This document shows positions 835 through 30,585 of a DNA stretch of 64,000 nt, in pieces (within the stretch, counting starts at the first letter, position 1; the number at the start of each line of letters is the position of its first letter). This DNA comes from Candidatus Methylomirabilota bacterium. GTDB lineage: Bacteria; Desulfobacterota; Binatia; Bin18. The position numbers were made by a program, and so were the translations under genes. The notes beneath the pieces are model-generated. The model made no database searches, was not told the origin of the DNA, and was given only the letters and a program-made list of their open reading frames with translations. Location: positions 369 to 64,368 of the forward strand of contig DATLYA010000005.1 of the NCBI GenBank assembly GCA_035575235.1, in the 5' to 3' direction.

Positions 835-1299
835 ATGGCCGAGATGTTCATTGGAGAACTGGCTGCCCAGCTCGGGCTCAATCCGCGCACGCTGCGCTAC
901 TATGAAAATCTCGGCTTGCTTCCAGCGCCCGGTCGCACCGTGCACGGCTATCGCGTGTACGGCGAGGAGACCGCTCAGCGGCTGGCCTTTATTGCCAAGG
1001 CCAAAAGCCTCGGGCTCACTCTGAAGGAGATCCGGCAGATTCTCGCTCTGCGCGACAGTGGGCGGCTCCCCTGCGCCTCGGTACAGCGGCTCCTGCAGGA
1101 GCATGTCGCCCGCATCGACCGCCAACTCGCCCACTTGCAGGCGCTGAAGGCAGACCTGACCACCCTGCTCGACGGCTGGCGGCCGGAGAGGCAGCGCAAC
1201 GGGCAGGTTGTGCCCGGCGCCATCTGCCCCCGTATCGAGGCCAGCGGTGCGACCCCAAGAAAGTGCAACGCCACCAGGAAAGGAGATGAACGTCCATGA
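835..1299 (+). CDS. MerR-family heavy-metal-responsive transcriptional regulator
   Basis: MAEMFIGELAAQLGLNPRTLRYYENLGLLPAP...GYRVYGEE HTH, then a coiled-coil dimerisation helix. Cys80 is at the position used by divalent-metal MerR sensors; C-terminal Cys residues are present. TGA stop overlaps the next ATG. Confidence 0.9.
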   Translation: MAEMFIGELAAQLGLNPRTLRYYENLGLLPAPGRTVHGYRVYGEETAQRLAFIAKAKSLGLTLKEIRQILALRDSGRLPCASVQRLLQEHVARIDRQLAHLQALKADLTTLLDGWRPERQRNGQVVPGAICPRIEASGATPRKCNATRKGDERP

Positions 1300-1463
1300 C
1301 CAAGACTGTCTCGCTCTGCCCAAACTGTGACGCCTGTCCGATGGTCGAAATCGACGATCAGGAGGTACGTATCGGTGAGGAAGGGAACCTCGTGAAGTTA
1401 ACTCTGGCCGAGTGGAACGTCCTCGTGCAGGCGATTAAAGCCGGCGAGCTCGACGAACTGTAA
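1296..1463 (+). CDS. Small Cys-rich protein (55 aa, CPNCDACP motif), translationally coupled to merR-like gene
   Basis: ATGA overlap with the regulator stop, AGGAG RBS at 1281-1285. MTKTVSLCPNCDACPMVEIDDQEVRIGEEGNLVKLTLAEWNVLVQAIKAGELDEL. Below the ORF-track size cutoff. Confidence 0.5.
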   Translation: MTKTVSLCPNCDACPMVEIDDQEVRIGEEGNLVKLTLAEWNVLVQAIKAGELDEL

Positions 1464-1754: not shown

Positions 1755-2054
1755 ATGGCACTGAAAGTCGTAGGTGCAAAAATCTCCTGCATGATCGGGA
1801 CGCTGTTCGCCCTCCCCTGGTGATGACTGCTACCATGGATCTTCTCCCTGCTCGGGTCAGCAGGGGTCGGAGTCGCAGCAGTATGGGTCGGGAAATTCAC
1901 GCCGGTGTTTCTCGTGATTTCCCTCGCCTTCCTTGGGCGAGCCCACTACCTGCTCTACCGGCGGCAACACGGAAACCGGCTGAGCAGGACATTGGTGTGG
2001 TTCTCAACGGTTACCGCAGTAGCTCTGTGGGCCTATCGGTTTGGAGTCATGTAA
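1755..2054 (+). CDS. MerT-like small membrane protein with tandem selenocysteines (UGA-UGA 1821-1826) replacing the CC pair
   Basis: MALKVVGAKISCMIGTLFALPW[UU]LLPWIFSLLGSAGVGVAAVWVGKFTPVFLVISLAFLGRAHYLLYRR...; single open frame apart from the two TGA. Aligns to the Cys paralogue 25764-26103 (LLSTCCRGPTLYVLFGVSVGG...GLLGYAFHHLYIR) and to the MerT ACCLGPLVL motif. Confidence 0.75.
1846..1865 (+). promoter_or_regulatory. Candidate SECIS hairpin for UGA-UGA 1821-1826
   Basis: CCCTGC/GCAGGG 6-bp stem with loop UCGGGUCA, 19 nt after the second UGA. Confidence 0.45.
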
Positions 2055-2070
2055 CAAGGAGGCGTCACCC

Positions 2071-2421
2071 ATGGAAAAAACAAAGAGAGTGATAGGGCTG
2101 ATCGCGTGTCTGCTCCTCCTGTCAGGTTTGCCGCATCCCTTTGTGGCGCAGGCCGCAGCAGGAGAGCGGGTGAAAGTCCAAGTAGCGGGGATGGTGTGAC
2201 AGTTCTGAGCGTATAACGTCAAGGCGGCCGTGAGCCGCTTGGATTTTGCTCCCTCCATTAACGAGATGAAAGTGGACTTGGAGGCGGGGACGCTAGAGTT
2301 CACTGCCCGTGCAGGCACGCGCATTGATCAGGAAAAGTTGAAGAAGGCCATTGAGGATGCGGGGTATAAGGTGGAAGGGATAGAGATGACCACCACGAGA
2401 AACAACGAAGGCACGCCATGA
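2071..2421 (+). CDS. MerP-like periplasmic heavy-metal-associated (HMA) protein with UxxU metal site (UGA 2197-2199 and 2206-2208)
   Basis: AAGGAGG RBS and signal peptide MEKTKRVIGLIACLLLLSGL...AQA. ERVKVQVAGMV[U]QF[U]AYNVKAAVSRL...KLKKAIEDAGYKVEG matches the HMA GMxCxxC fold. The Cys paralogue at 26141-26419 has GMSCAMC. Confidence 0.85.
2222..2240 (+). promoter_or_regulatory. Candidate SECIS hairpin for UGA 2197/2206
   Basis: 7-bp stem AAGGCGG.C/GCCGCUU (one G-U pair) with loop CGUGA, 13 nt after the second UGA. Confidence 0.5.
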
Positions 2422-3383
2422 CTGCAGGAGCCTTCGTGACCACAGCGTTCGGGATGGCCTGGGCGACCTTGCACTATATCGTCTTTTACCGCTTTGCTAT
2501 CGGGTTTGCCTTCTTCTTCTCTGTGCTCCTCCAGTTCTTCTTCCCCGCTGAGAGGTGGCTGCAAGTTATCCGTAAACATTCAGGGCCTATACCGATTCTG
2601 GCTGCGGCCGGCTTGGGGCTCACAACGTCGCCGGGCCGTCAGGCAATAGAGAACAACTTTTTCCAGCTGGTAGCTGTGAAAGCTCCGCTGACCGCGCTGG
2701 TGGCATACTTGATCTGCAGCCACAATTTGACGGTCTACTATCTCCTAATGCTGGGGCCGCTGCTCGGCAAGGACGTGCTCTTCTCACACGTGCTTGGGGG
2801 CGTGATGGTTTTCATCACCGCCAGTCTCGGCCTCAGCCTTGTTTTTGGCAAGACTCATAAGCCTGGCAAGCTTGAGGCGAACGAGGACGCTGCCGTTGCC
2901 CAACCCACTGTGCGGCTGGAGAGGCTCGTTCGGGCAGTGGGCTCGGAGCTGTGGGCAACAGGTCCCCTAGTCCTTTACGGCCTGCTGCTCGGTGGTCTCA
3001 TTGCCGCGTGGGGACTTTCTCCCTGGCACGTTGTCCCAGTGACCCTTTTGGGGAGCGGTCTGACCGCGCAAGTCACCAACGCCGTCCTTGGGCTTGGAGT
3101 ATCTTTTCTGACCTGGATGAGCCCCGTCGCAAACCTCTTTGTTGGCACCTATATCTGGAAGGTGGGCATCGCTCATGCGGGGCTCGTGAGTTTTTTCTTT
3201 GCCAGCCTCGTCTCCTGGCCGCGGGTACGCCTGTACCAAAGAACCCTGGGAGATAGACAGGGTGCAGTTTTCGCCATTGTACTGGCTCTAGCGGCTCTCG
3301 CAGCGGGGCTCCTCGTGGCGCTCTTCTTTCACGTCACCGGCCTGTCTATCCACTACAAGCTCATTGCTCAGCAGATGCTGTAG
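2418..3383 (+). CDS. Polytopic inner-membrane permease (possibly COG0701/ArsP_1-like)
   Basis: ATGA overlap with the MerP-like stop. 321 aa, about 8-10 hydrophobic spans. The family call is from general resemblance only. Confidence 0.7.
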   Translation: MTAGAFVTTAFGMAWATLHYIVFYRFAIGFAFFFSVLLQFFFPAERWLQVIRKHSGPIPILAAAGLGLTTSPGRQAIENNFFQLVAVKAPLTALVAYLICSHNLTVYYLLMLGPLLGKDVLFSHVLGGVMVFITASLGLSLVFGKTHKPGKLEANEDAAVAQPTVRLERLVRAVGSELWATGPLVLYGLLLGGLIAAWGLSPWHVVPVTLLGSGLTAQVTNAVLGLGVSFLTWMSPVANLFVGTYIWKVGIAHAGLVSFFFASLVSWPRVRLYQRTLGDRQGAVFAIVLALAALAAGLLVALFFHVTGLSIHYKLIAQQML

Positions 3384-3394
3384 GAGGAGCGGTC

Positions 3395-4288
3395 ATGGCA
3401 AAGCGGCAGTTTGGCGTCACAGTGGTTGTTGCAATCCTCTTGCTCCTGGGTGGGAAAGAGAGCCCGGCCCTGCCTATCCGTACGACTGATCCGAATGTCG
3501 GCATCTTCTCTGGCTCAGCCGCTCTGGGTCGAGTGGAGTTCGCAGAGGCGTCGAGGCCAGGGGTAGACGTCTCCGCTACGATCGTGCCCACCATGTTCCT
3601 CTATAGTCCCACGACTTACAGCGCGTTTGGCATTGTCGCCCCCTACGTAGAAAAACGCCTGAATCTCAAAGGCAAGGGAGACGAATTCACCCAGGGGATT
3701 TCTGATATCATGCTTCTCGGTCGGTACAAATTCTTTAGCCTGCCACAGAAGCAGGCGTGGAATCAGGCAGCGTTTCAGCTCACGCTCAAGCTCCCCACAG
3801 GTCCGACCGACAGACGTATCAACCTTCCCGTGCCTCCATCGGTAAAGCGGGCGTTGCAGCCTGGAACGGGCTCGACCGATTTCATCTTTGAGTTCGCCGG
3901 TGGCAGGTTCACCACCCGTTACAACCTGCTGGCCAACATCGGCTATCGGCTGAACACCGAAGATGATGAGATCTCCTTTGGCGACCAATTTTTTGTGAAG
4001 ACGGACCTTGAATACTTCCTTTTTCCGTGGCTGACACGAAAACATGGCCAAGAAGTCATTAGCCTGCTCGAGTTCAGCTTTGTCCATGCTGAACGAGATC
4101 AATTCAAGGACAGAGGCGTGCCCAACAGCGGTGGCAACAGCTTCTTCCTTGCCCCCGGTCTTCAATGGATTGTGAGTGAGCGGTTCCTGGTGGAAACCTC
4201 GATCCAGCTTCCCCTATCTCAAGACTTGGCGGGTAAACAGCCTATGCTCGACCAGAGTGTGCTGGTTGGAGTTCGCTTTGTGTACTGA
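3395..4288 (+). CDS. Outer-membrane beta-barrel protein (MetA-pathway/transporter-like)
   Basis: AGGAGGAG RBS, signal peptide, alternating beta-strand pattern, C-terminal ...VGVRFVY aromatic terminus. Confidence 0.7.
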   Translation: MAKRQFGVTVVVAILLLLGGKESPALPIRTTDPNVGIFSGSAALGRVEFAEASRPGVDVSATIVPTMFLYSPTTYSAFGIVAPYVEKRLNLKGKGDEFTQGISDIMLLGRYKFFSLPQKQAWNQAAFQLTLKLPTGPTDRRINLPVPPSVKRALQPGTGSTDFIFEFAGGRFTTRYNLLANIGYRLNTEDDEISFGDQFFVKTDLEYFLFPWLTRKHGQEVISLLEFSFVHAERDQFKDRGVPNSGGNSFFLAPGLQWIVSERFLVETSIQLPLSQDLAGKQPMLDQSVLVGVRFVY

Positions 4289-4663: not shown

Positions 4664-5548
4664 ATGCTGCCAGATGCGGCGATAGATGCCATTCACCGAG
4701 TAGTGACAGATTCCGGCCGGCTCACGCAGTCCTGGTTTCAGCAGACGATGGCGTCTGGAGAAATCACTGATGCGCAGTATGTGGAGATTATCGATGTAGT
4801 GGTGACGGTGGTCAGCATCGACAGCTTTTGTCGCGGCATTGGGGTTCCGCTGCATCCACTCCCTGAACCACAAGAGGGAGAACCGTCGCGCTATCGCCCT
4901 GCGACAGCTCAACTACAGGAAGCCTGGGTGCCTATGATTCCGGTAGAGGGAGCGACCGGGGCCGAAGCTGACCTGTGGAATCCCACAGGGCGGGTCGGCA
5001 ACGTGATCCGCGCCTTAAGTTTGATTCCTGACGCGGTGCGTCAGCTCATGGACCTGAGCAACGCCCACTACGTGCCTCGTGATCGCTTGATGGATTTCAC
5101 GTGGAGCCGGTCGTTGTCGCGTGCGCAAATGGAACTGATCGCGGGTCGCGTCTCAGCGCTCCGGGGGTGTTTCTATTGAACGACCGCGCACGCAATGCTG
5201 CTCCGGGCGAGCGGCCAGGCGACCGGTCAAGCCTTCGACCTCCACGCAGTGACTGAGGGAACGACCACAGTGAGAAGCGGAGTAGCCCATGAAGAAACCC
5301 TCGTAGCATCGGCGGAAGCAATGGTTAGTGACGACGAGCAGGCGCTGGCAACCGCTCGTACACGCGTCCTCGAAGAATTGGGACCTGAGGCGCTGGTTGA
5401 TGCGGCTGGGGTAGCGTCGAACTTCGAGCGGATGGTCCGCATTGCCGATGCTACGGGCATTCCCTTGGACAGCTTTCTCGATGAGATGACTGTCGACCTG
5501 AGAACGGAGCTGCACTTGACCCGGTTTGAGTCCGTCACGAACGTCTAG
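4664..5548 (+). CDS. AhpD/CMD-family (alkylhydroperoxidase-like) selenoprotein, motif C-F-Y-U (UGA 5177-5179)
   Basis: Track ORFs 4664..5179 and 5195..5548 are in the same frame, separated only by TGA. ...RVSALRGCFY[U]TTAHAMLL matches the AhpD-family N-x-C-x-Y-C-x-x-x-H signature. The 5' end may be truncated at the selD junction. Confidence 0.8.
5197..5215 (+). promoter_or_regulatory. Candidate SECIS hairpin for UGA 5177-5179
   Basis: GCUGCUC/GAGCGGC 7-bp stem (one G-U) with loop CGGGC, 17 nt after the UGA. Confidence 0.5.
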
Positions 5549-5738
5549 GAGAGCAACTCTCCGCTGTGGCGCCTCCTCGTCATTGCATTTGCACGGTCGG
5601 AAGCATGGCTTGTGTTCGGATTGCACAGTGGTGACGGGGACGTTCCAAGAGGACTTCCAGACGGGAGGAGCAACTCGTCACCAGCAGCCTACCCACGAGG
5701 AGCATCGTGAAGAAGTATCAAGAAGAGAGGAGGAAGTG

Positions 5739-6116
5739 ATGCAGAAACGGGGAGTGAGCTTTTTTCTGACCATCGGCGCAATAACTGTGGTCTCTCTTGC
5801 CGGAGGAACTTGGGTCCACGCGCAACAACACGCGGTCGCCAGAGCGGCGATTTCGGAGTCGCCGCCGATTCCGCCTGATCAGATTCCACAGCATATCCGG
5901 GATGCAGTGAATGCAGCCGACCGTCCCGCAGCGGACAAGAGTCTCGACGCCGGACGCAAACCTGAGCAGATGCTGGCGTTTTTCGGGATTCAGTCAGGAA
6001 TGAACGTTGCGGACCTTTCCGCCGGCGGTGGATACACCACTGAGCTGCTCTCGCGCGCCGTCGGGCCGACCGGTACCGTGTATTCACAGAATCCTCCCTT
6101 TCCGCGTTCTTGTTAA
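5739..6116 (+). pseudogene. Exported class I SAM-dependent methyltransferase, apparently 3'-truncated
   Basis: GAGAGGAGGA RBS. MQKRGVSFFLTIGAITVV... signal, then DRPAADKSLDAGRKPEQMLAFFGIQSGMNVADLSAGGGYTTELLSRAVGPTGTVYSQNP. It stops about 125 aa in, and no continuation appears in any frame. Confidence 0.5.
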
Positions 6117-6592
6117 CAAGTAGGGGCAGTAGTGATCGTGCTATGGAGCAGAAGTGGAGACAAGGCCTGTTGCGGTTGCTCCTGCTAGGGCTGGTGATGT
6201 TCCACTCTGTTCTGGGAACAGGGAGTACGTCTATTCCGTCCTGTTCCACATGCGTACATACGCGCCATCGTGCCGGTGGCTGTGCGGGTCATCATCCCGG
6301 AGCCCATTGTCCGCTCACACTGCGCGAGCAGAAGAGAATTCCTGCTCTTTCGTGTGCGCTGAGTTGTCGCCATCATCATCGCTCTGCTGGCGTGCCTGCA
6401 GCAGGCGAATGGTTTCTGCTGTCCGGCAATATCAGGTTACCCCTTCCTCTTTTCTTGCGTTTTACAGGACCATTTTTCCACCCCGCCTCTCCTGATGGTT
6501 ATCCCACTTTGCTCTTCAGACCCCCTCCTCTCTTTCGTGTCTGATCCCAAATTTTTGCTTTTTTACTGACAGACCCCAGAGGATCATCCTCC

Positions 6593-7510
6593 GTGGAGGA
6601 AATGAGGAGGACTCGTATGCGTCACGCATGGATGTATGTCTTCGCCAGTATAAGTACGTGTTTCGCCACTGCGGCTGCCCACGCCCACGGCGCGGTAGGA
6701 AAGCGAGTATTTATTGAACCTTTTGTGACAGAAGACGCCAACCCTAAAAATGAGTTTGTCATTGCGAAACCTGGATTTTTTAACACTGACGAGGGCAACG
6801 TATTTTCGCTTGGTTTTGCGCTGGAAAAGAAGCTGTCAAACAACTTCAGCCTCACCTTGGAAGGCGAGTGGACCTCTGAACGGGCTGGCGGCCAGCCGCA
6901 TGTAGAGGGATTTCAAAACCCGGGAATCCTGCTCAAGTACAGTGTGTGGAAAGATCTGGCGCGAGAGTTCATCCTCTCGCCGGCTCTGGAAATTGAGTTC
7001 CCACTTGGTGATCGGGAAGTGGGGGCAGCAAGGGAGCTGATCGTCGCCCCCCTCCTCCTTTTTGCCCGGGGATTGGGCGACCTGCCGCAAAGTCTGTCGT
7101 ACCTCCACCCTCTCGCGCTGATGGGAGACATCGGGTTTGAGATCCTGACGAATGCGGAGACCGAAACCGTCCTCAAATATGACATCCTGCTGATGTACAG
7201 CCTTCCCTATCTTCGCGCTCACGTTCGTGAGCTTGACGCTCCGTGGCCGTTCACTCGGCTTATCCCCTTGGTGGAGTTCAACTTTGAAACCGGGGTGAAT
7301 GGAGAAGCTCGCCTAACCAAGGCTCGGCTGACTCCCGGCGTGGTATACCAGGGGCAGTTCGTGCAACTTGGTGTAGCTGGGCAATTTCCCCTCAATCGTA
7401 CGACCGCTCGAGAGTTAGATCCCAGCCTCCTGTTCCTGGTAGATCTCTTCTACGACGATCTCTTTCCCGCACTCGCCCAAACGTCGTGGGGCACGGGGAG
7501 TAAGGAGTAA
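6593..7510 (+). CDS. Putative outer-membrane/exported beta-rich protein
   Basis: Signal-like N-terminus (MRHAWMYVFASISTCFATAAAHA) and amphipathic beta pattern. Start is uncertain (6593, 6602 or 6617). Confidence 0.55.
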   Translation: MEEMRRTRMRHAWMYVFASISTCFATAAAHAHGAVGKRVFIEPFVTEDANPKNEFVIAKPGFFNTDEGNVFSLGFALEKKLSNNFSLTLEGEWTSERAGGQPHVEGFQNPGILLKYSVWKDLAREFILSPALEIEFPLGDREVGAARELIVAPLLLFARGLGDLPQSLSYLHPLALMGDIGFEILTNAETETVLKYDILLMYSLPYLRAHVRELDAPWPFTRLIPLVEFNFETGVNGEARLTKARLTPGVVYQGQFVQLGVAGQFPLNRTTARELDPSLLFLVDLFYDDLFPALAQTSWGTGSKE

Positions 7511-8727: not shown

Positions 8728-9330
8728 ATGGAAGCACGGCTCTCACAGAAAGAGAAAGAACTCGTCGCAGTCGGCGCCTCCGTGGCAGCGGGGTGTATCC
8801 CGTGTACCGAGTATCACCTGAAGGAAGTGAAGGGAGCTGGAGCCACGACCCAGGAAATTACGGCGGCCATTGATGCTGCTCTCTGTGTGAAAGGCAGCAC
8901 GCGCGGCATCATGGAGCAGGTGGCATACCAGGCGCTGGGCGTGCCCAGAGAAGAGCAGCCGTCCTGCTGCGCGGGGCCAACTGATCGCATGAAAGAGCTC
9001 GTCTCGATTGCGGCCGCAGTGGCGGTCAACTGTCCAACAAACCTGCGCAAGCATGGGGATGCCGGTCGCAGCGTGGGCGTGCGCACAGAAGAGATTCAGC
9101 TTGTCGTTGGATTGGCCAAAATGATTCGCAGCAAAGCGATGGAAAAGACTGATGAGGTGGCAAAGGAGTTAGCCGCTCCCACCTGTGCTCCGCTTCAGGC
9201 GTCTTGTGGCCCGACAGTGCAGATTGCACCCCAACCCCAGACGGCGATGGGAAGTTGTTGCGGTCCCAGCGTCAGCGTCCGACCCGGCGTACAGCCTGTG
9301 CAGGCATCGGCAAAGGGGTCATGCTGCTAA
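8728..9330 (+). CDS. Carboxymuconolactone decarboxylase (CMD/AhpD-like) family protein with Cys-pair-rich tail
   Basis: LSQKEKELVAVGASVAAGCIPCTEYHLKEVKGAGATTQEI. A second degenerate CMD repeat follows. Tail carries SCCAGP, GSCCGP and terminal GSCC. Good RBS. Confidence 0.85.
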   Translation: MEARLSQKEKELVAVGASVAAGCIPCTEYHLKEVKGAGATTQEITAAIDAALCVKGSTRGIMEQVAYQALGVPREEQPSCCAGPTDRMKELVSIAAAVAVNCPTNLRKHGDAGRSVGVRTEEIQLVVGLAKMIRSKAMEKTDEVAKELAAPTCAPLQASCGPTVQIAPQPQTAMGSCCGPSVSVRPGVQPVQASAKGSCC

Positions 9331-9416
9331 CGTGAGACAGAAAGGCGAGAGAGTATCCCGGGGATATTCTCTCGTGCCGCTACGCTCTTCAAGAGCCGGC
9401 CAATTTGTATGTTGCG

Positions 9417-9445
9417 TTGACATATCAAAAAAATTTGATACAAAG
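9417..9445 (+). promoter_or_regulatory. Putative promoter plus palindromic operator upstream of acr3
   Basis: TTGACA (9417-9422) followed by the perfect palindrome TATCAAAAAAATTTGATA (9423-9440). ArsR/SmtB-like operator is inferred; no arsR gene is seen in the window. Confidence 0.35.
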
Positions 9446-9598
9446 AAAGCGAAGAAGAAGGCGTCATTGCCTCTCACATGTCGGGCCGTACTGAACTGAA
9501 CAAGCACCGGAGTCCCATTCGCCAACGAAAATTCTTCGAATTGTATCTTGTCATCCTGCTGCGATATTCTCATGACTGATAAGGAGAGTCGAGGATTC

Positions 9599-10660
9599 AT
9601 GAACAACCACTTGTCGTTTCTCGATCGGTTTCTCACCCTGTGGATTTTTCTGGCGATGGCCGTTGGAGTCTCCGCGGGCCATCTCATCCCCAACGTGGAA
9701 TCCTTCATCAACCGCTTCCAGGTCGGCACGACTAACATTCCGATCGCCATTGGCCTCATCCTGATGATGTATCCACCGTTGGCGAAGGTGCGCTACGAAG
9801 AGCTGGGGCAGGTGTATCGCAACTGGAAAATCCTAGGCCTCTCGCTGGTGCAAAACTGGGTCATCGGCCCGATTCTCATGTTTGTCCTCGCCCTGTTGTT
9901 TCTGCGAGACTACCCTGAGTACATGGTCGGCTTGATCATGGTCGGCTTGGCTCGCTGTATCGCCATGGTCATTGTGTGGAATGAACTGGCCCGAGGAGAT
10001 ACCGAATACTGCGCCGGGCTGGTAGCGTTCAACAGTGTGTTTCAGGTGCTGTTTTACAGCGTCTATGCCTGGGTGTTCATTACGGTGTTGCCGCCGCTGT
10101 TTGGTCTGCAGGGCAGCATCGTCGATATCAGCATCGGGCAGATTGCCGAGAGTGTGTTTATTTACCTTGGGATTCCCTTCCTTGCAGGAATGGCTACCCG
10201 GTTCGTGTTAGTCAAAGCAAAAGGCAAGGAATGGTACCATACCGTCTTCATCCCGCATATTAGTCCCATTACCCTGATTGCGCTCCTCTTCACGATTGTG
10301 GTGATGTTCAGTCTCAAGGGCAATCTGATCGTTCAACTGCCGTTTGACGTCATTCGTATTGCCATCCCCCTCTTTTTCTACTTCGTGGCGATGTTTTTAG
10401 TGAGCTTTTATATGGGTCGGAAAGTTGGGGCGGATTACTCGCAGACAGCGACGCTCTCCTTTACGGCGGCCAGCAACAACTTTGAGCTCGCCATCGCCGT
10501 GGCGGTGGCGGTGTTTGGCATCAATTCCGGCACGGCCTTTGCCGCGGTGATCGGGCCGTTGGTGGAAGTGCCGGTGTTGGTTAGTTTAGTGAACGTGGCC
10601 TTGTGGTTTCAGCGGCAATATTTTGGGGGTAGTGCCCGGCCTTTCTTGGTGCGCTCCTAA
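9599..10660 (+). CDS. acr3: ACR3-family arsenite efflux transporter
   Basis: [24 protein letters not shown]...[26 protein letters not shown]...[24 protein letters not shown] 10 nt upstream of ATG 9599. Confidence 0.95.
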
Positions 10661-10807
10661 CACCAAATAAGGCAACGTACAAAAACCCCCTGGCGGTGAG
10701 CGCTGAGAGGAGGTTAAACAACAGAGCCCGTGTCCAGCTGAAACCGCCGTCGACCAGCACCCCGCAGGCGCCGTGTTTCTGGAGAATCGCGTGAAGGATA
10801 CAGAGAT

Positions 10808-10924
10808 TTATTTCTTTTGCATTTCCTCACCGCAGCATTTGAGCGTGCCCGCGCCGCCTTTGGTGACAATAACCTGGGCGCCGCATTTCGTACAGACATA
10901 CATTTTGCCAAGTTGATTGGGCAT
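10808..10924 (-). CDS. Desulforedoxin-like small FeS4/zinc-ribbon protein (38 aa)
   Basis: MPNQLGKMYVCTKCGAQVIVTKGGAGTLKCCGEEMQKK matches the desulforedoxin pattern YxCxxCG...G.L.CCG..M. AAGGAG RBS. Below the track cutoff. Confidence 0.75.
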   Translation of the reverse strand: MPNQLGKMYVCTKCGAQVIVTKGGAGTLKCCGEEMQKK

Positions 10925-11128
10925 ACTCGTATTTACTCCTTACCAGGAACGCGAGATCTCTATCACCATTAGCATGCTGATCTCGTTGGCAACAGGGGAA
11001 GAATGTTGTCATTGACGAGAGAGGAGACCTGACGACGCTGAACAGCCGCGAGCTGGTAACCTTTTCCCGGACTGAGTGGGGTAATCGCGACGATCTTCCC
11101 ATTGAACGGTAGGAAGGAAGAACATCTT

Positions 11129-11986
11129 GTGAAGAGTTTGTTGTTTCTCTGTGTGGCGAATTCGGCGCGTAGTCAAATGGCTGAGGGACTGGCGCGCCGT
11201 CTCTTCAGTGACACCGTGCAGGTGCAAAGTGCGGGATCGAACCCTACGCAGGTAAATCCACTGGCGATCGAGGTGATGGCGGAAATTGGTATAGATATTT
11301 CTGGCCACACCGCAAAGTCGATTGACGCACTTGACCTGGCGGCGGTGGATACGGTGATCACCCTGTGCGCCGAGGAAGTGTGTCCGGTTTTTCTCGGTCA
11401 AGCGGAACGACTACATTGGCCGATCCCCGATCCGGCAGGGCATGAGGGCGAATCGCCTGAGCAGCAACTGCACCGCTTTCGCGCCGCCCGCGAGCAGCTT
11501 CGCGGGCGGCTGGAAGTGCTCGCGGCGCTGCGCGAGGTCCCTACGGCGCCAACTTTTGACGAATTCCATTGTAGTGTGCGGGTTACTGATCTGCCGCGGA
11601 GCGCGCACTTTTACGCCTGGCTACTGGGAACCCGTCCTAAGGAGTGGACTCACCGATATGTGACGTTTCATCTGCCCCAGCGGCATACCAACTTCGTGCT
11701 GGTGGTGTCAGACGGCAAAGAGTTGCATCACGATACGTTGTATCATCTGGGGATCGGCGTGCCGGACAAGCAAGCCGTACTCGATTGGTATGAACGGGCG
11801 GTGAGGGCAGGATGGCCGATTGCCAAGCCGCCGCGCACCACCTGGCGCGGGACGCCCTTGCATGAACTGTGGCTCACCGACCCAGATGGAAACCTGATCG
11901 AGATCTACGCCCGGCTGACGGAGGCGGAGCTCGCTATGAAACCGGCAGACGAGGAACCGGTGTTCCTCGTCCCACGCACTCCCTAG
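11129..11986 (+). CDS. arsC: Arsenate reductase (LMW-PTP type) fused to a VOC/glyoxalase-fold domain
   Basis: [20 protein letters not shown] (CX5R-S P-loop), TLCAEEVCP Cys pair, DPAG. The C-terminal about 150 aa is VOC-like ([10 protein letters not shown]...[17 protein letters not shown]). GTG 11129 is taken by analogy with the paralogue at 30949. Confidence 0.85.
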
Positions 11987-29340: not shown

Positions 29341-30585
29341 ATGGAACCTTTCGCTATCGGATTGTATCTCGTCGGCGTTCTCCTGCTCGCGCTAACCTTT
29401 TTCCCTTTCTCCCCTATGACGCTCAAGTTCTGGATGCCGAAGCGCGAGACCATGCTCTTTGCTCATCAGCATCGCGTACTGCTCCGCGGACTTGGGAGCC
29501 TGAGCGTAGCAATCACTTTTTTTCTCGCCATGACGGGGGATGTCGCAACCGAGTGGGGTTGGGTTGCTGGGCTGACTGGAGTGTTTTTCCTCGCTTTTTG
29601 GTGGGGGGGCTATGTCCCGGTCATCATGGGCTCTCCCCAGGACCAGCAACTGCTCAGCGCTGAACAAGCTGAGACCATTCTGAAACCCCAAGACGATGTG
29701 TTAGGCGTGGTGCTGGATGGTGAGGCGCATGCGTATCCGCGGATGGCCATCACTAGGCCACATCTTTATCATGACACGATCGGCGGCATTCCCATCACCG
29801 TAACATATTGCATCCTGTGTAACTCGGGGGTTGCCTTACGGGCAGAGCTTGAAGGACAACCACTCTCTCTCCACCCTATCACCGCCTTCAATAACAACAT
29901 TATCTACTACGATGCTCAGAGTGGAAATTACATCCAACAGTTGGAAGGAGACGTTATTGCTGGCCCAGCAAAGGGAAAACGGCTCGCGACGCTGCCCACC
30001 ACCTTGACCACATGGCGGACCTGGAAAGAACTGTACCCACGGACTCGGGTGCTTTTTGCCCCAGAAACAAAACTGCGCGATCGTATGTTGACGAACATGC
30101 TGCACTGGATGATGCCGCTTGCTGGACTGATGCAACGTCGCACCCCTTGGCATCCATTAAATGTAAATGGTAATCGAGACGAACGGCTGCCAGCGATGAC
30201 TCCGATCTTTGGCGTAGAGGTGAAAAGGGAAAGAAAAGCCTATCCCCTCTCGTTGTTGCGCAACCGCAAGGTTGTAAACGATGCACTGGATGGTGTTCCT
30301 ATCGTGATACTCTACGATCCGGCGCGTGATACGGGAGGTGTCTTTACACGGGAAGTCGATGGCCGAGTCCTCACATTCCGCGCCTTTGCGAACGGGGTCT
30401 CTCAGATCGTAGCGATGGATGAAGAAACACGAAGCTTGTGGGATGTGAGAGGAAAAGCCTGCGAAGGAGTCTCAGCAGGCACAGGCTTGTCCCCGGTTCC
30501 TCACTTTGGGAAAGTATTTTGGTTTAGTTGGGCCACATTTCGACCGGGGACGAGACTCGAAACAGAGGTCGCCGGTGGACATTAA
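29341..30585 (+). CDS. DUF3179 domain protein (Cys form, TYCILCNSG) with N-terminal TM region
   Basis: ...GEAHAYPRMAITRPHLYHDTIGGIPITVTYCILCNSGVAL...TLTTWRTWKELYP. Serves as the Cys reference for the two Sec paralogues. Confidence 0.85.
   Translation: MEPFAIGLYLVGVLLLALTFFPFSPMTLKFWMPKRETMLFAHQHRVLLRGLGSLSVAITFFLAMTGDVATEWGWVAGLTGVFFLAFWWGGYVPVIMGSPQDQQLLSAEQAETILKPQDDVLGVVLDGEAHAYPRMAITRPHLYHDTIGGIPITVTYCILCNSGVALRAELEGQPLSLHPITAFNNNIIYYDAQSGNYIQQLEGDVIAGPAKGKRLATLPTTLTTWRTWKELYPRTRVLFAPETKLRDRMLTNMLHWMMPLAGLMQRRTPWHPLNVNGNRDERLPAMTPIFGVEVKRERKAYPLSLLRNRKVVNDALDGVPIVILYDPARDTGGVFTREVDGRVLTFRAFANGVSQIVAMDEETRSLWDVRGKACEGVSAGTGLSPVPHFGKVFWFSWATFRPGTRLETEVAGGH

Follow-up and report, generated by a model that had tools for sequence, protein, structure and literature searches.

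It is established for the HMA (heavy-metal-associated) family that Cys14 and Cys17 of MerP bind Hg(II). Selenolates are deprotonated at neutral pH and bind mercury tighter than thiolates, and selenocysteine (Sec, written U) in HMA-type metal sites has already been catalogued. Here we analyse a gene, which we call Sec-HMA, at positions 2071-2421 of a window of 64,000 nt (the whole stretch of DNA under study) from Candidatus Methylomirabilota bacterium (GTDB Binatia; Bin18), assembly GCA_035575235.1, contig DATLYA010000005.1, positions 369-64,368, forward strand. The predicted product is an exported HMA protein in which both metal ligands would be selenocysteine. It represents a new family with UxxU or CxxU sites and a wide distribution.

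Among the described selenoproteins, the family NF041115 ("UxxU_metal_bind") traces to Zhang & Gladyshev 2007 and is entered as a UxxU candidate under the name "putative mercuric reductase", together with a UxxC ATPase for cation transport and a selenoprotein resembling MerT, the "putative mercuric transport protein" (PMC9312934, PMC13188914). The selenoprotein catalogue of the Prokaryotic Genome Annotation Pipeline (PGAP) presented by Haft & Gwadz is without any selenoprotein involved in mercury resistance (bioRxiv 10.1101/2022.07.06.499078), and a literature search for Binatia or Binatota together with selenocysteine returned nothing relevant. The "MerP" selenoprotein of the 2008 Global Ocean Sampling (GOS) survey was considered as a precedent and rejected: the deposited sequence is an unrelated U-C fragment.

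NF041115 resembles the window protein in being small and HMA/MerP-like with Sec at both metal ligands, and the canonical MerP of this contig aligns to its model from end to end (62.2 bits, positions 1-72 of 74), which makes it a MerP-like HMA family. The window protein, however, scores 19.9 bits against this model (cut-off 95) over model positions 2-30 only, and differs in having its own gene module and its own invariant signature, YNVKAAVSRL, which coincides with a putative selenocysteine insertion sequence (SECIS). The preliminary description of the locus had called the domain MerP-like, and this stands for architecture and gene context: as in MerP (TIGR02052; 1AFI, 1AFJ, 1OSD), a predicted signal peptide is combined with a single HMA domain, the metal pair lies in the same loop, and the gene stands beside a MerT-family gene in mer operons. 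The label does not extend to the sequence, which is 29% identical to the canonical MerP of the same contig and reaches 23.6 bits on the MerP equivalog TIGR02052, below the cut-off of 92.55. Unlike MerP, the protein has Sec in place of Cys, and its gene is always followed by those for an ArsP-like permease and an outer-membrane barrel.

The best sequence scores are to CopZ/Atx1-type proteins (CopZ_Bs, 41 bits, with a chaper_CopZ_Bs cut-off of 91; PDB entry 1K0V, 36.5 bits), all of them below the family cut-offs, but CopZ proteins are cytoplasmic, Cys-based and without a signal peptide. The UxxC HMA domains of P1B ATPases and the MerT/CopZ fusion-like selenoprotein NF045683 likewise have Sec in an HMA motif, or MerT and HMA modules, in a setting of heavy-metal transport. 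These known examples are cytoplasmic pump domains or single fused polypeptides, whereas the window HMA is a separate protein, predicted to be exported; its score to NF045683 is 21.1 bits (cut-off 375), and the MerT-like (1755-2054) and HMA (2071-2421) proteins are encoded by separate genes. The C-U MerT-like selenoproteins (Carboxydothermus ABB16073.1; GOS reads; Zhang & Gladyshev 2007, 2008; Haft & Gwadz 2022) belong to the family of the partner encoded at 1755-2054 and not to that of Sec-HMA, and in our locus the partner's pair is U-U, not C-U. Since the window protein falls below the cut-offs of NF041115, MerP and NF045683, we place it in an uncurated family of a known kind. What the present locus adds is a conserved three-gene module, a matched Sec pair in the MerT-like partner and integration into mer operons.

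The elements of the gene are as follows.

2056-2062, forward strand: Shine-Dalgarno sequence AAGGAGG, 8 nt 5' of the ATG, read from the sequence
2071-2421, forward strand: Sec-HMA gene, 116 codons with two in-frame TGA, identified by orthologues and a match to the HMA profile
2071-2154, forward strand: predicted signal peptide of the Sec (secretory) type, residues 1-28, ending ...VAQA before AAG, from sequence features
2197-2199, forward strand: first putative Sec codon, ligand 1 of G-M-x-C-x-x-C, TGA in 12 of 17 orthologues
2206-2208, forward strand: second putative Sec codon, ligand 2, TGA in 17 of 17 orthologues
2222-2240, forward strand: SECIS-like hairpin AGGCGGC-CGUGA-GCCGCUU, 7 pairs, 13 nt past the second UGA and 22 nt past the first

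The gene starts with the ATG at 2071 and ends with the TGA at 2419-2421, which overlaps the ATG of the next gene. Its translation is MEKTKRVIGLIACLLLLSGLPHPFVAQAAAGERVKVQVAGMV-TGA-QF-TGA-AYNVKAAVSRLDFAPSINEMKVDLEAGTLEFTARAGTRIDQEKLKKAIEDAGYKVEGIEMTTTRNNEGTP-TGA, in which the second in-frame TGA is followed by AYNVKAAVSRL. The metal loop thus reads G-M-V-TGA-Q-F-TGA, with a TGA on each of the two ligand columns of the canonical motif. With U written as C for profile scoring, the protein passes the Pfam HMA model (PF00403): it reaches 39.2 bits where the gathering score is 24.8, and its residues 36-100 cover profile positions 2-62 of 62. A family profile built from seven orthologues matches the PDB structures of CopZ, MerP and the ATP7B metal-binding domains over the whole domain, and this full-length alignment suggests that Sec-HMA would adopt the beta-alpha-beta-beta-alpha-beta fold. 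The N-terminus presents K/R residues followed by a hydrophobic core of 12 residues (Kyte-Doolittle mean 2.9) and, behind it, the A-Q-A sequence, a pattern found in 17 of 17 orthologues, and the protein is accordingly predicted to be exported. The strong ribosome-binding site, the signal peptide (as a prediction from sequence features) and the HMA domain interrupted by TGA at both ligand positions, all three read from the letters in the preliminary description, are therefore borne out.

To assess whether the TGA codons are real, orthologues were gathered from the DNA around the relatives found by protein search and from scans of genome and metagenome collections. The exact TGA-containing sequence of the window is present in at least eight independent assemblies (L010-L016, L024), and 16 further distinct orthologues carry the TGA or TGAs in frame, so that the search for in-frame TGA at the HMA ligand columns proposed earlier yields 17 distinct orthologues including the window. 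Sequencing error, which the preliminary description had named among the findings that would overturn its reading, is ruled out by the identical sequence in these assemblies and by the retention of the TGAs in the orthologues. The orthologues come from metagenome-assembled genomes (MAGs) of Binatia-type bacteria (Candidatus Binatia), Desulfurellales, Myxococcales, Candidatus Multivoraceae, Acidobacteria and Gemmatimonadota. The second ligand is invariably TGA, while the first is TGC (Cys) in the remaining 5 of 17 (L003, L019-L022). Each of the two subgroups, Q-F and G-F, contains both TGA and TGC at ligand 1, which shows that the exchange between Cys and Sec through a single-base change has happened more than once.

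Ratios of nonsynonymous to synonymous substitution (dN/dS), calculated against the window copy, are 0.21-0.76 in the 42 codons that precede the first TGA, a level expected of a signal peptide, and 0.12-0.29 in the part downstream. Both flanks are under purifying selection. The gene for the MerR-family regulator at the head of the cassette and the Sec-HMA gene itself both end in TGA, which excludes a global reassignment of this codon.

The public protein record of the family is consistent with systematic truncation at the second TGA. The U-to-C sequence, used as query in a protein search, retrieved 23 relatives that without exception have 63-66 residues and cover the C-terminal half only, as expected of gene calls that start just past this codon; the NCBI record MGH7818924.1 is one such stub of 66 residues. 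An exhaustive HMMER search against 1.84 billion cluster representatives yielded 49 relatives. Almost all of the nearest ones start, within residues 1-8, with MSRLDF, MKAAVSRL or MFNIKAAVSRLDF, indicating that this TGA has truncated them as well. From these 1.84 billion representatives the search recovered no annotated Sec form of full length, its full-length Cys forms being confined to distant HMA proteins, and a tblastn search of plasmids returned only distant ATPase HMA domains. One homologue with CxxC, from a member of Bradymonadia (L023), was examined as a possible Cys orthologue; its neighbour is a glycosyltransferase gene and not the module, and it was kept as a distant homologue only.

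The hairpin at 2222-2240, which had been pointed out before as a structure that the two codons would share, exists and is conserved in the orthologues. Across 16 distinct sequences, 99.1% of the cells in its stem are paired, the loop with its G-U never changes, and one pair varies in a compensatory manner (GC, GU, AU). To measure constraint at synonymous sites we compared codon entropy at residues that are invariant across 16 orthologues: the mean is 0.33 bits for the six hairpin codons (K-A-A-V-S-R) versus 1.28 for the rest of the gene (Mann-Whitney p = 0.002). The synonymous sites of the hairpin are frozen, and this is a stronger signal than covariation. The same suppression explains why the peptide YNVKAAVSRL is invariant across phyla. 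With a stem-loop just past the UGA and a G in the apical loop, the hairpin has the features of a bacterial SECIS, and its role as a site for SelB is putative. The first G of the loop, at 2230, lies 22 nt past the second UGA and 31 nt past the first. The bacterial SECIS model of Zhang and Gladyshev reportedly places the apical-loop G at 16-37 nt from the UGA, a range that both codons would fit.

The gene is embedded in a cassette with the following neighbours.

835-1299, forward strand: MerR-family metal-sensing regulator (Pfam MerR_1 and MerR-DNA-bind), at the head of the cassette
1296-1463, forward strand: 55-residue protein with a C-P-N-C-D-A-C(-P) motif, beside the MerR-family regulator gene in most Binatia-type loci
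1755-2054, forward strand: MerT-like membrane protein with ALPW-TGA-TGA-LLP (TGAs at 1821-1826), directly upstream of Sec-HMA
2418-3383, forward strand: ArsP_1-family permease (Pfam ArsP_1, 52.9 bits), partner in the core module
3395-4288, forward strand: predicted outer-membrane beta-barrel, Phenol_MetA_deg-like (Pfam, 27.1 bits), partner in the core module

In the MerT-like protein the two adjacent candidate Sec codons stand where MerT has C-C in its first helix, and the gene has a conserved hairpin of its own (CCCUGCU-CGGGUC-AGCAGGG, 1846-1865). The best family for this protein is merT_RC607, with 36.4 bits and below the cut-off of 130. It is 33% identical (E 5e-14) to the GOS "CU" MerT-like selenoprotein, whose Sec lies at the corresponding pair of the first helix. 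The partners agree in their number of Sec residues: the UxxU HMA occurs with a UU MerT-like protein, and the CxxU HMA with a CU MerT-like protein in L003, the sole locus that has a CxxU HMA together with a MerT-like gene.

Several details of the MerT-like gene and its surroundings were noted in passing. In L005 the gene has an in-frame TAG (GTC TAG GTC, near 5650) versus TGG (Trp) in the other loci, and a major facilitator superfamily (MFS) transporter gene is inserted upstream; the TAG could reflect a pseudogene, an assembly error or something else. The gap before the window's MerT-like gene contains, at 1530-1590, an imperfect inverted repeat with 30-nt arms that are 77% complementary. The repeat includes GTCATTCTGAGCGTAGCGAAGAATC, which gives rise to a pseudo-open reading frame "HSERSEES", resembles an element of the REP (repetitive extragenic palindromic) or MITE (miniature inverted-repeat transposable element) type and is not found at this spot in L001. 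A sigma-70 scan upstream of the MerT-like gene found no MerR-type operator/promoter. The candidate TTGACG-N20-CATTCT at 1507 was dropped; it is not conserved across loci, where the gene comes directly after merR, merP or the MFS gene.

In Binatia-type loci the order of the cassette is MerR-family regulator, C-P-N-C-D-A-C protein, MerT-like (UU) protein, Sec-HMA, ArsP_1 permease and Phenol_MetA_deg-like barrel. The gene for the C-P-N-C-D-A-C protein, which overlaps the regulator stop, is absent from L004 and has no family match. Every Binatia-type locus has the cassette inside or adjoining canonical mer genes (merT, merP, merA, merB, merC) in the same orientation: it follows directly after merT-merP in L009 and directly after merR in L004, and merA, merB or merC stand beside it in L001, L003, L005 and L006. 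The L010 contig, which carries the window sequence, has a canonical Cys-based merT-merP pair just upstream of the window, and it is the MerP of this pair that is 29% identical to Sec-HMA. Also upstream of the window, on what is apparently the same contig, L010 encodes at 5687-6607 a 306-residue Pyr_redox_2/Pyr_redox_dim protein that ends in C-C, versus the 554-residue MerA of related loci; merA of L010 looks truncated or rearranged, with the Sec cassette intact.

The MerT-like gene is confined to L003 and the loci of the Binatia type. In L018 and L019, which lack it, the permease gene still adjoins Sec-HMA, with products 37-38% identical, and the barrel, also encoded in the adjacent stretch, has homologues of 52% (L018) and 35% (L019) identity. 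As permease and barrel are kept where the MerT-like gene is missing, the conserved core consists of Sec-HMA, permease and barrel, and the association with mercury genes is specific to Binatia-type loci.

We then considered Sec decoding in this genome. About 2.2 kb downstream of Sec-HMA, the open reading frame at 4664-5179 extends past its TGA (5177-5179) as far as 5548. The read-through product reaches 396.9 bits on the curated selenoprotein family NF041238 (AhpD_rel_CFYUT; cut-off 175); its match extends to the model's end, and the TGA falls exactly on the U of C-F-Y-U-T. A glutaredoxin-like (YruB-type) UxxC gene at 72-308 has its TGA (108-110) in the motif T-U-A-P-C. With U written as C, its scores to TIGR02196 (84.1 bits) and to the Uxx-star (seleno)protein family (61.6 bits) fall slightly short of the respective cut-offs. 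These additional selenoprotein genes suggest that the genome would encode the Sec machinery. The 4664-5548 gene, too, is split by gene callers, into 171 and 117 residues; its NF041238 match starts at model position 66, and the true start may lie further upstream. In related loci, DUF3179 genes (L001 9939-10865; L005 11260-12186; L006 11304-12192) are broken by gene calling into two neighbouring pieces of roughly 101 and 199 residues, as would be expected if they belonged to the known family of DUF3179 selenoproteins, and the window has an unbroken DUF3179 open reading frame of 414 residues at 29341-30585.

Within the window, a gene cluster at 8728-11986 encodes an ACR3 arsenite efflux pump (462.8 bits), a protein resembling an ArsC-ArsI fusion, and an AhpD-domain protein that has a Cys-rich tail and weakly matches the GSU3128 (seleno)protein family, which marks the region as a metal and metalloid resistance island.

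Taken together, the conservation of the TGAs and the selection on both sides of them make it very probable that 2071-2421 is a genuine selenoprotein gene. We further consider it likely that the product acts as an exported metallochaperone of the HMA fold, its two Sec ligands being inserted at the UGAs at 2197 and 2206 under the control of the one in-frame SECIS hairpin. Judging from fold and motif, it is highly probable that the protein would bind a soft thiophilic metal ion through a Se-Se site (Se-S in the CxxU orthologues). For this genome the gene context points to mercury handling with roughly even chances: Hg(II), possibly also organomercury, would be caught in the periplasm and passed to the MerT-like UU protein, permease and barrel completing the route across the envelope. 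In such a mechanism the two selenolates, or a selenolate and a thiolate in the CxxU forms, would hold the soft metal as Cys14 and Cys17 of MerP hold Hg(II). Ligand exchange would then transfer the captured ion to the U-U pair in the first helix of the MerT-like protein, and permease and barrel would provide passage through the envelope. Given the chemistry of selenolates, a Sec-to-Sec relay of this kind would capture metal at lower concentrations than the Cys-based MerP and MerT encoded alongside. The sequences themselves establish the coding region with its Sec codons, the hairpin and the conserved module; that a metal is bound, which metal it is, which way it travels and how the partners pass it on are all proposed here on such grounds.

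The reading as a selenoprotein has to be weighed against one in which the UGAs serve mainly as stops, the locus being a decayed HMA pseudogene, two small open reading frames or a selenium-gated attenuator with the hairpin as intrinsic terminator. Gene callers do split the gene into pieces of 42 and 63 residues, and a simple consensus scan marks 2222-2240 as terminator-like. However, the T-run 3' of the hairpin is not conserved (CTCCCCGCC in L021 and L022), the 63-residue piece begins at a GTG within the hairpin loop, and dividing the gene at the TGAs would break the domain apart in its metal site. Across phyla both TGAs and frame are kept, with purifying selection on both sides, and the identical sequence recurs in the independent assemblies mentioned above, so we regard termination as a very remote explanation. 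Some observations do weigh against Sec insertion as we propose it. No selA, selB, selD or tRNA-Sec was seen in the 64-kb window by tRNA scan, by Rfam gathering scan or among the ten largest open reading frames, and neither the Rfam nor the tRNA scan of the whole window gave any match. Covariation in the hairpin is weak, with a single compensatory pair and the observed score reached in 50 of 500 shuffles; it is not significant because the sequences vary too little, and synonymous-site suppression was used instead. The fold of the single sequence is also unexceptional (z = -1.5; z = -0.05 for a longer stretch). That one hairpin would serve both UGAs is made less certain by the 22 nt that separate it from the first, the nearer second UGA being the codon that never varies. 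Finally, no Cys at ligand 2 was found among the 17 orthologues of the module. Cys at this position is limited to distant HMA homologues outside the module (L023, P0066, P0070), and the classical Sec/Cys pairing at ligand 2 therefore rests on these distant homologues only.

If the gene encodes a selenoprotein, its metal could still be a different one. The same protein might be a chaperone for Cu(I), Ag(I), Au or Cd/Pb that works with permease and barrel in efflux or sequestration rather than in MerP-style import, the link to mer reflecting co-location in an island; we judge this unlikely. The conserved core lacks the MerT-like protein outside Binatia-type loci and L003. The Acidobacteria and Gemmatimonadota modules adjoin P1B ATPases instead of mer genes, which also counts against a role in mercury handling, and the non-Binatia neighbours include P1B ATPases with YHS/HMBD or HMA domains (L019, L021) and a zf_CopZ protein (L018). 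The protein resembles CopZ (41 bits, the best family score) more than MerP (23.6 bits), and the regulator scores 102.5 bits as CadR-PbrR against 93.3 bits as MerR, both below cut-off, a further point that does not favour mercury. A cation-efflux gene lies just downstream in L009, and ACR3 and ArsC/ArsI are found in the window as well. On the other hand, the CopZ scores are all far below cut-off, each cassette of the Binatia type is part of a mer operon or adjoins one, with the orientation shared (in L009 it stands right behind merT-merP), and the paired MerT-family protein would also have a Sec metal pair. A redox function, in which UxxU would form the centre of a periplasmic diselenide/selenol oxidoreductase on a ferredoxin-like fold, for instance keeping the Sec or Cys pairs of its partners reduced, appears improbable to us. 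UxxC, CxxU or UxxU serve as redox motifs in most prokaryotic selenoproteins (PMC1976440, PMC2398784), and redox selenoproteins are encoded nearby (the glutaredoxin-like UxxC and AhpD-related genes). The fold, however, is that of HMA and not thioredoxin-like, the motif sits at the canonical metal loop, and the neighbours are metal transporters and metal regulators. Chemistry raises two more difficulties for mercury transfer by a UxxU chaperone: in the oxidising periplasm the site may sit as a very stable diselenide unable to bind metal, and moving mercury from selenolates to downstream thiols would be thermodynamically uphill.

Extending the metallochaperone reading to the whole distribution of the family, we tentatively suggest, as a rather doubtful scheme, that Binatia-type bacteria may have a second, selenium-dependent mercury route beside the Cys-based MerT/MerP. 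Along this route, Hg(II) or methylmercury would pass from the UxxU HMA protein to the UU MerT-like protein, with permease and barrel assisting, and the same module would have been recruited to copper-type efflux in other phyla. If such a Sec-to-Sec mercury relay is true, mer operons would for the first time be shown to include selenoproteins as integral members, which would make the system considerably more interesting.

The relevance of the family does not depend on this scheme alone. Two selenoprotein genes, Sec-HMA and the UU MerT-like gene, are placed physically inside mer operons. The family is mis-annotated as stubs of 63-66 residues in all the public protein calls found, and its recognition restores the full protein in MAGs of Binatia-type bacteria, Myxococcota, Acidobacteriota and Gemmatimonadota. 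The natural UxxU and CxxU variants, to which a CxxC form could be added by engineering, share a fold that is simple and well studied and offer a handle on the contribution of selenium to soft-metal capture and on mercury-selenium antagonism. The two UGAs, 9 nt apart, likewise provide a natural case for whether one bacterial SECIS can serve both.

A last observation concerns the C-terminus of Sec-HMA. Binatia-type proteins end without any extension of the HMA domain, and a conserved extension of about 60-70 residues (...G.L......LE....GQ.F.L......) follows the domain in L019-L022, L028, L029, P0024, P0027, P0031, P0033, P0040 and P0071.

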